A stretch of DNA of 64,000 nucleotides from Eledone cirrhosa (taxonomy: Eukaryota), in NCBI GenBank assembly GCA_964016885.1, contig OZ024745.1:55676001-55740000 (forward strand). The letters are read 5' to 3'. Positions within the stretch are counted from its first letter, which is position 1. Every line of letters begins with the position of its first letter. Shown here in pieces: positions 10,257 through 63,570 of this stretch. The position numbers were made by a program, and so were the translations under genes. A model generated the notes under the pieces. It saw only the letters and a list, made by a program, of their open reading frames with translations. It made no database searches and was not told the origin of the DNA.

Positions 10257-10733
10257 AAACAGGAGACCGAATGAACTCCGCTACAGAGGTAAGAACAAAG
10301 TAAATAAATACAATACAGAAGTAATAGAAATAAATAAATACATACACGCAAACAAATACGTACATACACAAGCATTTTAGTCTTCAAATTTATTATTATT
10401 ACTATATATATATATATATATATATATATATATATATATATATATATATATATATACACATATATATAAATGTATATGTGCATAAATTTACGATTACCTG
10501 TAAATATACGGATACCTGCGTGTGTGTGCGCAAAGTTACGACGGTGTATATATATATATATATATATATATATATATAAGTAAGATGTATGGTAGGTCGT
10601 ATGTGAATCGCGATGATCACGTCTGACTTACCAAATATGTGATGGTAGCTAGTTAAGCTCTATGCGTATACGCAGAGCAGAAATATTAGTGAAAAAGAAC
10701 AAAGGAACTATTATGACATTATAACAAGTTTAT

Positions 10734-10780
10734 TGCCGACAGCCGTTTCGTCCGACCCCATGGTGGGACTTATCAAGGCA
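10734..10780 (-). ncRNA. Minimal type I hammerhead ribozyme motif (U3-A8 variant) in a PLE-like 3' end
   Basis: Minus strand: tgcc-TTGATAA-gtcc(12 nt loop)ggac-GAAAC-ggct-GTC-ggca, overlapping AATAAA. Confidence 0.75.
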
Positions 10781-11699
10781 TATAACATGTGATTGCAAGA
10801 TCATTGTTTACATCAACGTATCACTCAAGGCTAGCAGTTTGAAATTGTTGTATACATCAGCAACTCCGCTTTAAGGGGGGGCTCTTTTATATTAGTTGTC
10901 GGGGTTAGGGATTGAAGTTTAAAAATTAGACAAAAATATATAATTTACGCATCAACATTAAACCAAAAGACTTGGGGTCCCGTAGAAGCACCTTAGAAAA
11001 TCCCTCAATGAGTTCATAAAGCTTACAGGCTCCAATAAACCTATTAGTCTAGAAGAAAATTAAGAGGCTAATAAAATAATAAAATAAAAATATAAAGTTT
11101 CCCTAAAAAATATATAAAGTTCCTATGAAATTTCTTCTAGAGAAAAAAAAATTTTTCCGAAAGAAAAAAAACCTTCTTCCCCCGAGATCACGTTTACAAA
11201 ATTCAGAAAACTGAATTGAAAACTAGGTTGAAAGAAACTAATCAATTAGAGGTTAATTCAGAGAGCCTTCCATAAATCTCTCAGAAAAGGCCCCTTTAAT
11301 ATTTCCAATAGGAACGTCTTCCGAGAGACCCTTCGAAGAATTAAAATTTTAGAGAGCCTTTAAGGATAAATATAAAAACGAATTGAGGAAAATTATACAT
11401 TAAAAGTTAAAAATTAAAAATTACGGTATTTGGGATATCCGAGGAATTTTCAAAGGGCTGCTTCAACAGATACAACTTAGGCATAATAGATACAATAATC
11501 TAAGCAACTTAAGTAATTTAATTAGGGAGCAATTCAAGGAGTTTATCAAGTTGGGCAAGATTAAAGAAAGTGGCAACTAAGAAAATACATAAGCAAAAAG
11601 ACAATAATCATAAAATGTATCTTTAAGAAGGTACAAGGTAGCTTCAGTGATCTAACCCTGTATTATCACAAAAAAAACATTCTAAAATTATTGATACAG

Positions 11700-11857
11700 G
11701 ATTAAAAATGATTACAAAATTATTACAAAATTACCACAAAATCATTACAAAATTATCAAATCATCACAAAATTACCACAAAATCATTACAAAATTATCAA
11801 ATTATCATAAAATTATCGCAAAATTATTACAAAATTATCATACAATTATTACAAAAA
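11700..11857. repeat. ~11-bp minisatellite (AAAATTATCAC-like)
   Basis: Recurring aaaattattac / aaaattaccac / aaaatcattac units. Confidence 0.85.
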
Positions 11858-59478: not shown

Positions 59479-61826
59479 TCCACATTCCACCGTCCAATAT
59501 ACAAACCCAATGTCATCTCTCCTGTCCATCCGTTTGACGCTATGGATTTCCACAATGCAAACTGGGAAGCGATCAGTCATGATCTTGCACATGTCGACTG
59601 GTCCTTCACGCACACTCTTACACCCACTAACATCAAAAAGTCCTGGCAGACATTTGTGGACACTGTTACAAACATATGTGCTAAACACATCCCATTAAGA
59701 ACTGTAAACAAATCTAAGAGCAGAATCCCTAGAAATAGAAAAACGCTCATCAGAAAAATTAAGAGAACGAACAAAAATATCAACAAGCTGAAATACTGTC
59801 AGCAGCAACACATCAACTTGTCTGCCATTTCATCACTAGAGATTAAAAAACATAACCTCCAAAACAACATAATGTCCCTCATCAACAATCAGAGAAGAGC
59901 TGAAGAGGCCTGGGCCATTGAGAAGATCAAACTCAATCCCAAAGTGTTATTTTCATTTGCAAAAAAACACAAAATCACTGGCTCTACTGTTGGCCCTCTA
60001 ATTGATGAAAATGGCACTCTTCAAGACAATGCTAAAACCATGGGTGAGATACTGCAGAAACAATACTGCTCTGTTTTCAGCAATCCTGATATGGCCGATC
60101 TGGGCTGTATCGGCGATGTTACTCCCCATTACACCTTATCGGACATAACGTTTGGCGCCCTGATGTCTTGGCGGCAATAAAGGAAATCAAGCATAATTCA
60201 GCAGTAGGTCCCGATAGGTTCCCTGCTTGTGTCTTGAAGGTGTGTCAACACCAACTTGCATCTCCTCTTGCCAATCTGTGGCGGAACTCACTGGATGCTG
60301 GATATGTGCCAGAAAACCTTCTATCCCAGTCTGTTGTCCCAGTTTTCAAAAAGGGAAACAAATCCCTTGCCGTGAATTACCGTCCAATCTCACTCACCTC
60401 TCATATCATTAAGGTATTTGAGAGAGTGGTGAGATCGCGAATGACCCACTTCCTTGAGAGTAACAATATGCTGAACTCCAACCAGCATGGATTCCGTAAT
60501 GGAAGGGATTGCCTGACGCAGCTACTGCATCACTTTGATGACATTTTGAGAGCCTTGGGAGAGGGTTCCAACACTGATGTTATCTACCTTGATTTCAGCA
60601 AGGCCTTTGACAGGGTTGATCATAACATTCTACTGAGAAAGCTGTCCAATATTGGTGTCACTGGAAAGCTGCTGCAGTGGATCAAGAGCTTCCTGTCAAA
60701 CAGAACCCAACATGTTGTAGTTGAGGGAGTCAAATCCATCCCAGCCAAAGTCAGTAGTGGGGTCCCACAGGGCACTGTGTTGGGCCCACTTCTCTTCATC
60801 ATCTATATTAATGACATCACTGACATCATCAAACACAGCAACATTAAAATTTTCGCTGATGATTCCAAGCTCCAAAAGGTCATCAATGGCGTGGATGACC
60901 GGATAAGCCTTCAGTCAGACCTACTGGCTGTTACCCAATGGGCGGAAAAGAACAACATGTTACTGAACGAAGACAAATTCGAACTGATCCACTTTGGAAA
61001 AGAGGATGCTCTGAAACTCCCGTACTCCCTTCCCTCCGGGGAAACTCTCGTGGCATCTAACAACATCAGAGACTTGGGAGTAACCGTGGACAGCAACATA
61101 AGCCGGACCACGCATATAAGCAGCAAAGTTGACATGGCCTGCAGAATGTGTTCCTGGATCCTCAGAACCTTCCAGTCGAGAGATTCCCGCACCATTATCC
61201 TTCTCTTCTCTACTTTTGCCCGACCACACCTCGAATACTGTTGTCCACTGTGGTCTCCCCACACGAAACAAAGTATCATGAAACTTGAAGCTCCTCAAAG
61301 GGCAATCACGAAAAAGATAGATGGCATGTCAGACCTTGACTACTGGGGTCGATTAGAAAACCTGAAACTTTACTCACTCCAACGTCGCCGTGAGCGTTAT
61401 ATTATCTGCATGATGTGGAAAATGTTCCATCATCACTGCCCAAATGATGTTGGCATCGCCTTCAAGATACACCCAAGGCTTGGGCCCCGTGCTATCCGTC
61501 CCATTCAAAAATCTAAATCGCAACTCATAACAACAATACGGCACAATTATTTCACCTCAATCGGCCCTGCTCTCTTCAACATCACACCAGGACACGTCAA
61601 AACAGAAACTGACCACACAAAATTCAAGAAGTCTTTGGACAAATTCTCCAAGTAATCCCGGACAAACCACCCACACCCGGATATGTCTCCGCAAACAGTA
61701 ATTCTCTTCTCGAATGGGCCATGGTGCCCAAATCCTGAATTGAAAGACTTCGCCAGGTGGTGCTATTAAGTTAGACATGGCCTGGGCCAATACTGGCCAA
61801 AACATTTCAAAGTTATTCAAAGTTAT
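59479..61826 (+). mobile_element. 5'-truncated CR1/L2-group LINE, ORF2 RT, inserted in (TA)n
   Basis: SAVGPD, NYRPISLTS, QHGFR, YLDFSKAFDRVDH, SGVPQGTVLGP, FADD, RDLGV, RPHLEY, SLQRRRERY; frameshifts at ~60165 and ~61645; tail (TTCAAAGTTA)x2. Confidence 0.92.
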
Positions 61827-62319
61827 ATTTATATATATATATATATGATTGGTTATATATATATATATATATATATATATATATATATATATATATATAT
61901 ATATATATATATATATATATATATATATATATATATATATATATACATATATATATATACATATATATATATATATATATATATATATATATATATATAT
62001 ATATATATATATATATATACATATATATATATATAACCAATCACCCACACACTTTCATTTATATATATATATACATATATATATATATGAAAGTGTGTGG
62101 GTGATTGGTTATATATATATATATGTATATGTATATATATATATATATATATATATATATATATATATATATATATATATATATATATATATACACATAA
62201 TATATATATATATATATATATACACATATATATATATATATATACATATATATATATATAACCAATCACCCACACACTTTCATATATATATATATATATA
62301 TATATATATATATATATAT

Positions 62320-63570
62320 ATTGTTATACTTTGGGAGGGTCATGTTGCCAATAAGAAACGTACACGCACCAGTTGCTTTCACTTCAATTTATTATATATT
62401 TATAAATTTATAAATTTATAAATTTATGGTTGGTTGGTTGATTCCACAACCAGATAGTTGTTTATATATAGTCATAGTTCTTTCGTCACACACTCTGTGC
62501 CCTCTTCAGTGACTGGGGATTCCTTTCTTTGTTTCTGTGCCTCTCCTTTGTTCTGTCCAACGCCATTTTGTTTCTGTGTGTATGTTGTGTGCTCAGTCTG
62601 CGCATGCGCCACATCCGCGTGTCTGTGTGTGTTTATGTTCATTTATTTATTTGTTTATTTACATGTTACTGGTTGGTTGTTTGTTCTATGTGTGTGTGTG
62701 TTTTCATTTTGTCCTTAATTGTAAGTTCTGATGTTGCTGTTCCACTCATATTTTCTATTTAATTTTGGTTGTAATTCTTTTATGTTTATTGCCTCTGTAA
62801 TTTGTCTAAACATTGCGTCTTTTCTGTGTGTAGATTCTATTTTTATTTATATGTTTTCTAATTTACCCTTGTGTTCTATTTTAGCATGTTGGTAGAGTAC
62901 AGATGATTCTTTATTATCTTGAAGGTCTCATCTGTACTCTACCAACATGCTAAAATAGAACACAAGGGTAAATTAGAGAACATAGAAATAAAAATAGAAT
63001 CTACACACAGAAAAGACGCAATGTTTAGACAAATTACAGAGGCAATAAACATAAAAGAATTACAACCAAAATTAAATAGAAAATATGACTGGAACAGCAA
63101 CATCACAACTTACAATTAAGGACAAAATGAAAACACACACACACATAGAACAAACAACCAACCAGTAACATGTAAATAAACAAATAAATAAATGAACATA
63201 AACACACGCAGGCACCCGGATGTGGCGCATGCGCAGACTGAGCACACAACACACACACAGAAACAAAATGGCGTAGGACAGAACAAAGGAGAGGCACAGA
63301 AACAAAGAAAGGAATCCCCAGTCACTGAAGAGGTCACATAGTGTGTGACGAAAGAACTATGACTATATATAAACAACTATCTGGTTGTGGAACCAACCAA
63401 CCAACCAGAAATTTATAAATTTATGAATTTATAAATATATAATAAATTGAAGTGAAAGCAACTGGTGCGTGTGTTTCTTATTTGCAACATGACCCTCCCA
63501 AAGTATAACAATATCGGTTTCAACACACGATTTCAGATAAAGAATCTTGCTAAACAAATTTAGAAACGAA
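62320..63570. mobile_element. Fold-back insertion of PLE family A 3' end (~590-bp arms)
   Basis: 62320-62908 is the reverse complement of 62929-63512; encodes the GIY-YIG C-terminus; HHRs at 62470-62514 (minus) and 63320-63364 (plus). Confidence 0.92.

Follow-up and report, generated by a model that had tools for sequence, protein, structure and literature searches.

Inverted repeats of the window and the elements they contain

We analysed a 64,000-nucleotide stretch of the Eledone cirrhosa genome (assembly GCA_964016885.1, contig OZ024745.1, positions 55,676,001 to 55,740,000 of the forward strand; hereafter the window), in which inverted repeats lie among (TA)n arrays. The window has a GC content of 31% and the genome a size of 3.0 Gb. 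Inverted repeats were detected by self-BLAST of the window after masking (TA)n, hammerhead ribozyme cores were located by a motif scan, and nine element families (A-I) were traced through the genome. The nine inverted repeats placed here by an original prediction, made from the letters alone, were all recovered, with arm identities of 80-100%. Each represents a head-to-head insertion of a Penelope-like element (PLE) in (TA)n. Such insertions have two fixed outer ends, outward orientation, arms of common lineage, either of which may reach further 5', and microhomology at the junction. The reading we favour, with a probability of about 0.68, is that the tail-bearing and the tail-less arm of the same lineage arise by double target-primed reverse transcription (TPRT) that starts from two fixed positions within the element RNA, and that the cDNAs are joined at short microhomologies.

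The leftmost of the nine is a family D pair (16663..16869; self-BLAST match 16673-16780, 80% identity) with a tail-less arm on the left, a tail-bearing arm with a tail of ~80 nt on the right and only the 3' half of the hammerhead in each (16681-16703, minus strand; 16750-16772, plus strand). It is followed by a family E insertion consisting of a tail-less arm on the minus strand (16908..19647; GIY-YIG coding sequence 18221-18811, hammerhead 16977-17013) and a tail-bearing arm on the plus strand (19648..21255; hammerhead 21045-21081). These arms match at 93% (16908-18431/19648-21152), and the tail-less one exceeds the other by ~1.2 kb on the 5' side. This element had been thought to end at 21185, but actually extends to ~21255, and its tail contains a secondary 74-bp palindrome (21186-21259), which is near-perfect in the window copy only and an imperfect hairpin region elsewhere. 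The family B pair (40484..40858; match 40484-40795) has arms 98% alike, a 61-nt tail on the right and hammerheads with a U3/A8 core (40561-40590, minus; 40689-40718, plus), and the start of each arm lies 43 nt ahead of its hammerhead core. Family C is present as two pairs, one with a right-hand tail (41014..41428; match 41014-41345, 96%; hammerheads 41066-41120, minus, and 41239-41293, plus) and one with a left-hand tail (52591..53019; match 52680-53019, 98%; hammerheads 52726-52780, minus, and 52919-52973, plus). A family G pair with a right-hand tail lies at 51138..51566 (match 51138-51517, 90%; hammerheads 51259-51287, minus, and 51372-51400, plus). The family H pair (57984..58271) has a 144-nt tail on the left and a perfect 144-bp palindrome (58128-58271, 100%), the centre of which falls inside the hammerhead. 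The rightmost repeat is a family A pair (62318..63571; match 62318-63514, 96%), in which a tail-less arm (62318-62929, minus) and a tail-bearing arm (62928-63571, plus) with a 57-nt tail overlap by 2 nt at the junction; its hammerheads are at 62475-62509 (minus) and 63325-63359 (plus).

The remaining repeat belongs to a family F PLE (42584..49871) with open reading frame (ORF) pieces at 44503-47135 on the plus strand, GIY-YIG sequence and a tail-bearing end at 49871. Its inverted arms (42584-44505/47866-49690) are 99% identical in their unmasked parts, and a hammerhead lies at 49687-49718. The arms include ~880 nt of non-family DNA (48807-49690 and its mirror within 42584-43570), with a piece resembling a short interspersed element (SINE) and a TA array; where this foreign DNA sits on the right, other fetched copies have a stretch of 64 nt. 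The left end (42584) ends exactly at the foreign-DNA junction, without (TA)n. This copy is rearranged, likely by a recent template switch between the inverted arms.

Family F also accounts for the exceptions to three general features that had been predicted. Outward-pointing hammerheads in both arms were confirmed for eight repeats, as cores or, at 16663 and 57984, as 3' halves, but at 42584 the core is found on the right side only. The extra ~30-180 nt on one arm proved to have a length fixed per family (57, 61, ~80, ~90, 98, 100, 35-49 and 139-144 nt), but the 181 nt at 49691-49871 are not the tail of family F, which measures 100 nt. Contact of the outer ends with (TA)n was the rule throughout the genome (see below), but not at the left end at 42584.

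Two further PLE features lie in the window. The element at the start of the predicted region (10579-14580) is not an inverted repeat, since two different families meet here head-to-head: a family I arm of the reduced-linker type on the minus strand (10579..13021; U3/A8 hammerhead 10738-10776) with its tail-bearing end at 10579 on (TA)n, and a broken family A arm on the plus strand (13016..14580; reverse transcriptase (RT) thumb and GIY-YIG, hammerhead 14320-14354), also with a tail-bearing end. They are joined via a 6-nt microhomology, and a deletion between neighbouring elements is the simplest reading. In family I, the tail-less end lies 104 nt inside the tail-bearing end, and relatives have an endonuclease (EN) ORF upstream. 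A long family B copy with RT and GIY-YIG coding sequence (53146..56598, minus) has its tail-bearing end at 53146 and its 5' end at a TA array and is without a partner arm.

Element families and insertion ends across the genome

Eight of the nine families are ends of elements with RT and C-terminal GIY-YIG coding sequence; family H alone is non-coding. Family B forms a 4.7-kb unit with frames of 409 and 775 aa in 3/3 full copies and Pfam matches to RVT_1 and GIY-YIG. Family C has an 821-aa open frame and a 3.7-kb tandem unit, and the 207-nt hairpin of family D represents the terminal part of a coding tandem unit of 3.1 kb. The tandem unit of family H measures 2.8 kb and contained no ORF >170 aa in 6/6 long loci. 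Partial tandems occur in B, C, D and H, and inverted arms are also present. The GIY-YIG match of families E and F was below the curated Pfam cut-off and the RVT_1 match of family A was weak; RT and EN motifs were read directly in the translations of A, C, D, G and I. Because eight of nine families connect to RT and GIY-YIG coding sequence, the short hairpins are 5'-truncated PLE ends and not a separate non-coding system. The families had been described as mostly non-coding and as a palindrome system of their own; neither description holds, the architecture being the published PLE insertion structure (PMC3846280, PMC8557442). The retrozyme-type combination of a non-coding tandem unit and a hammerhead was found in H only, not in the other eight families.

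Core motifs and stems of a type I hammerhead were present in 9/9 families, with C3/G8 in six and U3/A8 in three. The U3/A8 pair replaces C3/G8 as a compensatory change across three families (40561-40718, 10738-10776, L305:1455-1545). Rfam Hammerhead_1 matched family F below the gathering score (E 0.0008) and missed family A. With the whole window as query, no hammerhead was among the 150 of 226 Rfam matches listed; the matches were mostly to microRNA models and fell on TA runs and hairpins. Translations of A, B and G contain a CX4CxxC linker motif, which fits the CX2-5CxxC motif before the C-terminal GIY-YIG of Neptune, and the linker of C, D, E, F and I is a reduced one, CxC...CP...C, which is putatively Nematis-type. 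By linker motif, the families are placed as new Neptune- and Nematis-like PLE families. The CX2-5CxxC linker defines Neptune in PMC8557442, in which the Nematis linker is described only as 'reduced'. In 3/3 full copies of family B (L177:3053-6516; L172, L176), the two frames overlap, and a T-TTT-TTA heptamer in the overlap is a candidate -1 frameshift site; a frameshifted ORF1 is known for PLEs (PMC8557442). The ORFs of F and A contain long Asn-rich stretches (45099-47135; L191, L193), as reported for Adineta Penelope elements.

End classes were counted in samples of families A, B, C, E and G that had been drawn tail-blind; neither these counts nor those of 5' extent include the samples selected by their tail (first A query, F, H, D). 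We also removed two false pairs in B, which were low-complexity, and any pair that extended beyond its locus; of family C, 4/33 pairs were unscorable. In every family the outer ends fall at two fixed sites: one end bears the tail, and the other, without a tail, lies 35-144 nt further in. A tail-bearing arm faced a tail-less arm in 87 of the 98 scored pairs (A 18/20, B 17/18, E 10/12, G 15/19, C 27/29); the others comprised three pairs with two tail-less arms, three with two tail-bearing arms, two of which continue into a tandem unit, and five of other kinds. Since tandem copies continue beyond the tail end, both end sites are internal positions of the RNA. A family C sequence pattern gave 2,430 exact matches and another gave none; among the first 100 motif matches listed, 33/33 opposed pairs within ≤10 kb were oriented tail-out. 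In a six-family set, (TA)n directly adjoined 92/93 tail-less and 81/93 tail ends, and 7 of the 12 tail ends without direct (TA)n belonged to family G, on TC/TA-mixed repeats. Flank lengths ranged from 0 to 356 nt. Tail-less arms also occurred singly, with (TA)n at their 3' end (L161, L171). Empty insertion sites, sought to see whether the TA flanks might be produced by the element, were absent from the fetched DNA, and target-site duplications (TSDs) are unreadable inside (TA)n. Two pairs of loci (L078 and L095, L422 and L423) have identical junction positions, owing to hot spots or to later duplication of whole insertions.

The architecture is not confined to the window. Eight arbitrarily placed 50-kb blocks contained 30 TA-bounded inverted repeats (0-11 per block), 24 of which were asymmetric, and a simple hammerhead scan was positive for 7/30, all outward. 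By rough extrapolation from the 24 cases in 400 kb, the genome holds in the order of 10^5 such insertions. The six symmetric repeats include some that resemble TA-flanked miniature inverted-repeat transposable elements (MITEs). Together with the 100% perfect palindrome at 58128-58271, they would fit fold-back artefacts of assembly or amplification, or TA-targeting MITEs or foldback DNA transposons, as the origin of the inverted repeats. As an account of the families studied here this is extremely improbable: the arms of most window copies differ by 2-20%, the ends fall on two family-fixed sites over dozens of loci while the centres vary, and the arms consist of fragments of hammerhead-carrying RT/GIY-YIG elements. 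An identity as MITEs or foldback DNA transposons was ruled out by the asymmetric ends and the RT-coding parents.

Arm lineage, 5' extent and junctions as tests of mechanism

With many young families and ~10^5 insertions, competing models can be scored by counting. In family C, lineage variants were concordant between the two arms in 200/214 cases, compared to a mean of 17% and a maximum of 37% in 200 shuffles, and arm concordance in A, B, E, G and H exceeded all 1000 shuffles. In A, apparent discordance was mainly at alleles of the query copy or within low-complexity sequence; in H, it was located at the priming end. These sites were excluded from the test. The two arms of one insertion derive from one source lineage.

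The 5' extent of the arms was compared with a 15-nt rule in 86 pairs. The tail-less arm was longer in 33, by up to 2.5 kb, the tail arm in 27, and 26 were about equal. In family C, the tail-less arm extended >100 nt further 5' in 12/27 pairs. These numbers bear on a model in which a single priming event occurs at the tail end, the 3' end of the cDNA snaps back and copies itself to the tail-less site, and later deletions blur the centre. Arms of the same source, microhomology and the 27/86 pairs with a tail arm further 5' agree with it. However, fold-back from tail-end priming yields only shorter tail-less arms, and simple fold-back is therefore disfavoured by the 33/86 opposite cases, which occur even in family B, in which the arms differ at 5/6712 sites, leaving little time for deletion. 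To rescue the model, large one-sided deletions would have to be common even there. We regard it as highly unlikely, and the word 'fold-back' in the title of the original prediction thus names a model that the data disfavour.

A different proposal has been made in PMC3846280 and PMC8557442: RNA, possibly antisense, or cDNA primes itself and folds into a symmetric hairpin, one end of which is trimmed at the tail boundary by the endonuclease on integration (Arkhipova 2013; 'EN-mediated resolution' in Craig 2021). Self-priming with trimming accounts for the single tail of each insertion, for centres that are near-equal and for common variants and microhomology, and trimming on either arm would let either arm be the longer one. 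We nevertheless consider it unlikely on three grounds. Four insertions (L168, L202, L223, L228) have loop-less centres with dyads of only 2-6 nt, which cannot form an intramolecular primer. In five others (L029, L088, L170, L249, L263), the tail arm lies wholly within the tail and has no sequence in common with its partner; self-priming would need the sole paired part to be cut away, whereas the arrangement is a plain twin-priming product. Finally, start sites on sense RNA in vitro already mark both tail ends (PMC11167929).

At the junctions, 54/57 flush joints overlapped by at least 1 nt (43% by chance) and 43/57 by at least 2 nt (16% by chance), and the microhomology of 1-4 nt was far above chance. 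Inserts were present at 33/90 junctions, and 16/19 inserts of at least 7 nt matched local sequence (24% when shuffled). Such microhomology and templated inserts resemble polymerase-theta end joining. The 5' ends in B and G cluster 43-44 nt before the hammerhead core and 29-31 nt after a TATA-like box, which suggests that short transcripts of the pseudo-long terminal repeat (pLTR) were copied to their start; transcripts of this kind, made from the pLTR promoter, are probably what the short hairpins were copied from. Near-equal 5' ends occurred in family C in 7/27 pairs (within 40 nt), with 1.3 expected. In family D (L278-L307), 5' ends cluster at one point in hammerhead stem II, with a recurring 5-nt centre, an observation confounded by query selection. 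A non-templated G precedes the 5' ends of 22/30 family D copies and could be a copied cap; being confounded by query selection and microhomology, it was not used as evidence.

The mechanism that best fits the genome-wide data is double priming, as the original prediction had proposed, though without its non-coding families, its palindrome system and its need for a self-complementary (TA)n target. An RT-endonuclease dimer would nick both strands of (TA)n; on the element RNA, one 3'-OH would initiate at the end of the tail and the second 35-144 nt further upstream. The cDNAs would end independently or at a common RNA 5' end, the duplicated stretch being either copied two times from RNA or in part templated by the first cDNA, with one RNA or two sibling RNAs as template. 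The centre would be sealed head-to-head by host end-joining. A self-complementary target is not essential, since Adineta Penelope has inverted pLTRs and a one-sided tail within 8-10-bp TSDs. To a broader proposal we give even odds: double TPRT by a dimer on one RNA, with one subunit at each tail end, may be the default of endonuclease-positive (EN+) PLEs, the inverted pLTR and the one-sided tail being its single signature.

Several points weigh against double priming. All evidence comes from a single assembly. Family F gave no concordance signal (0/8 sites, 6 loci), and the arms disagree at some loci of G and E. Common variants could also result from gene conversion between arms, and deletions arising later at the centre of a palindrome could displace its apparent 5' ends. 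Microhomology is uninformative between double priming and fold-back, and some of the scored junction inserts are alignment ends. Near-equal 5' ends fit a shared RNA end but also a hairpin that was trimmed symmetrically. About 13 of 30 query-selected family D copies have one common centre sequence, for which independent joining must invoke a hot spot. Copies derived from tandems could have folded back onto an upstream pLTR.

Remaining features of the window and comparison with known systems

A complex inverted and direct repeat at 37129-37757, absent from the original prediction, carries a hammerhead at 37293-37342 (minus), and a similar tandem unit occurs in L277. Tandem repeat families with degenerate hammerhead-like text between TA arrays (15429-16615, 63654-63933, 51578-52361, 57300-57855) are probably further PLE ends. 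A separate non-LTR RT element between TA arrays (59472-61829; RVT_1, E 2e-31), presumably CR1/L2-like, lies outside the PLE finding. The SINE-like repeat has a tRNA-like head (23336-23408; Rfam) and also occurs at 21860-21976, 42714-42821 and 49453-49560.

PLEs are the closest retroelement relatives of telomerase, and how their inverted repeats and tails form has been an open question (PMC8557442). The inverted pLTR, the one-sided tail and the (TA)n targeting were known (PMC3846280, PMC8557442); new is the genome-wide test of mechanism, which fits double TPRT better than simple cDNA fold-back. The genome thus serves as a natural test bed favouring double priming over fold-back, and the counts yield sharp predictions for the existing in vitro PLE system. 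If double TPRT is indeed the default, the genome would provide genome-scale evidence against the published self-priming model. For annotation, these hairpins look like MITEs and microRNA precursors and should be classed as ends of PLEs.

The families share with canonical EN+ PLEs the RT with C-terminal GIY-YIG, the pLTR hammerhead, partial tandems, an inverted 5'-truncated head-to-head copy, a tail at one end only, the preference for (TA)n and the optional frameshifted ORF1 (PMC3846280, PMC8557442). Arkhipova (2013) described inverted pLTRs, a 31-bp one-sided tail and head-to-head palindromes and proposed self-priming (PMC3846280); Craig (2021) described the same structure with (TA)n targets for PLEs generally and listed the origin of tandem and inverted structures as unsolved (PMC8557442). 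Tails are 35-144 nt long here, compared to 30-40 in published EN+ PLEs. In contrast to those papers, the one-tail rule, the symmetry of 5' extent and the common source of the arms were counted here over ~100 insertions; those papers favour self-priming or EN resolution, whereas our counts favour double priming.

In vitro, the anole PLE protein Poseidon PAc nicks and extends both strands of an AT-rich target and uses two internal start sites bracketing the tail; it was modelled as a dimer (Frangieh et al., 2024; PMC11167929). It differs from the families here in belonging to the Poseidon clade, without the Cys linker. The available text of that study does not connect the start sites to inverted-repeat insertions and reports no difference in start site between the strands; from the genome counts we infer that such start sites give rise to inverted insertions. 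Non-LTR retrozymes, which are non-autonomous PLE derivatives (bioRxiv 10.64898/2026.07.22.740005), resemble family H in their non-coding tandem unit and type I hammerhead. Family H differs from them as described there in its 2.8 kb per unit and its inverted insertion with one tail-bearing and one tail-less arm, and the other eight families have coding parents.

Twin priming of L1 is the nearest mechanistic analogue. In L1, the second site of priming varies and the two pieces have hardly any overlap, whereas the families described here use two fixed sites and usually carry the same stretch in both arms. We found no application of twin priming to PLE inverted repeats in the open-access literature, a weak negative because subscription journals lay mostly outside the search. 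What L1 twin priming and the insertions described here have in common is that both target strands prime, that a 5' part is inverted and that the junctions carry small indels (PMC5668948).

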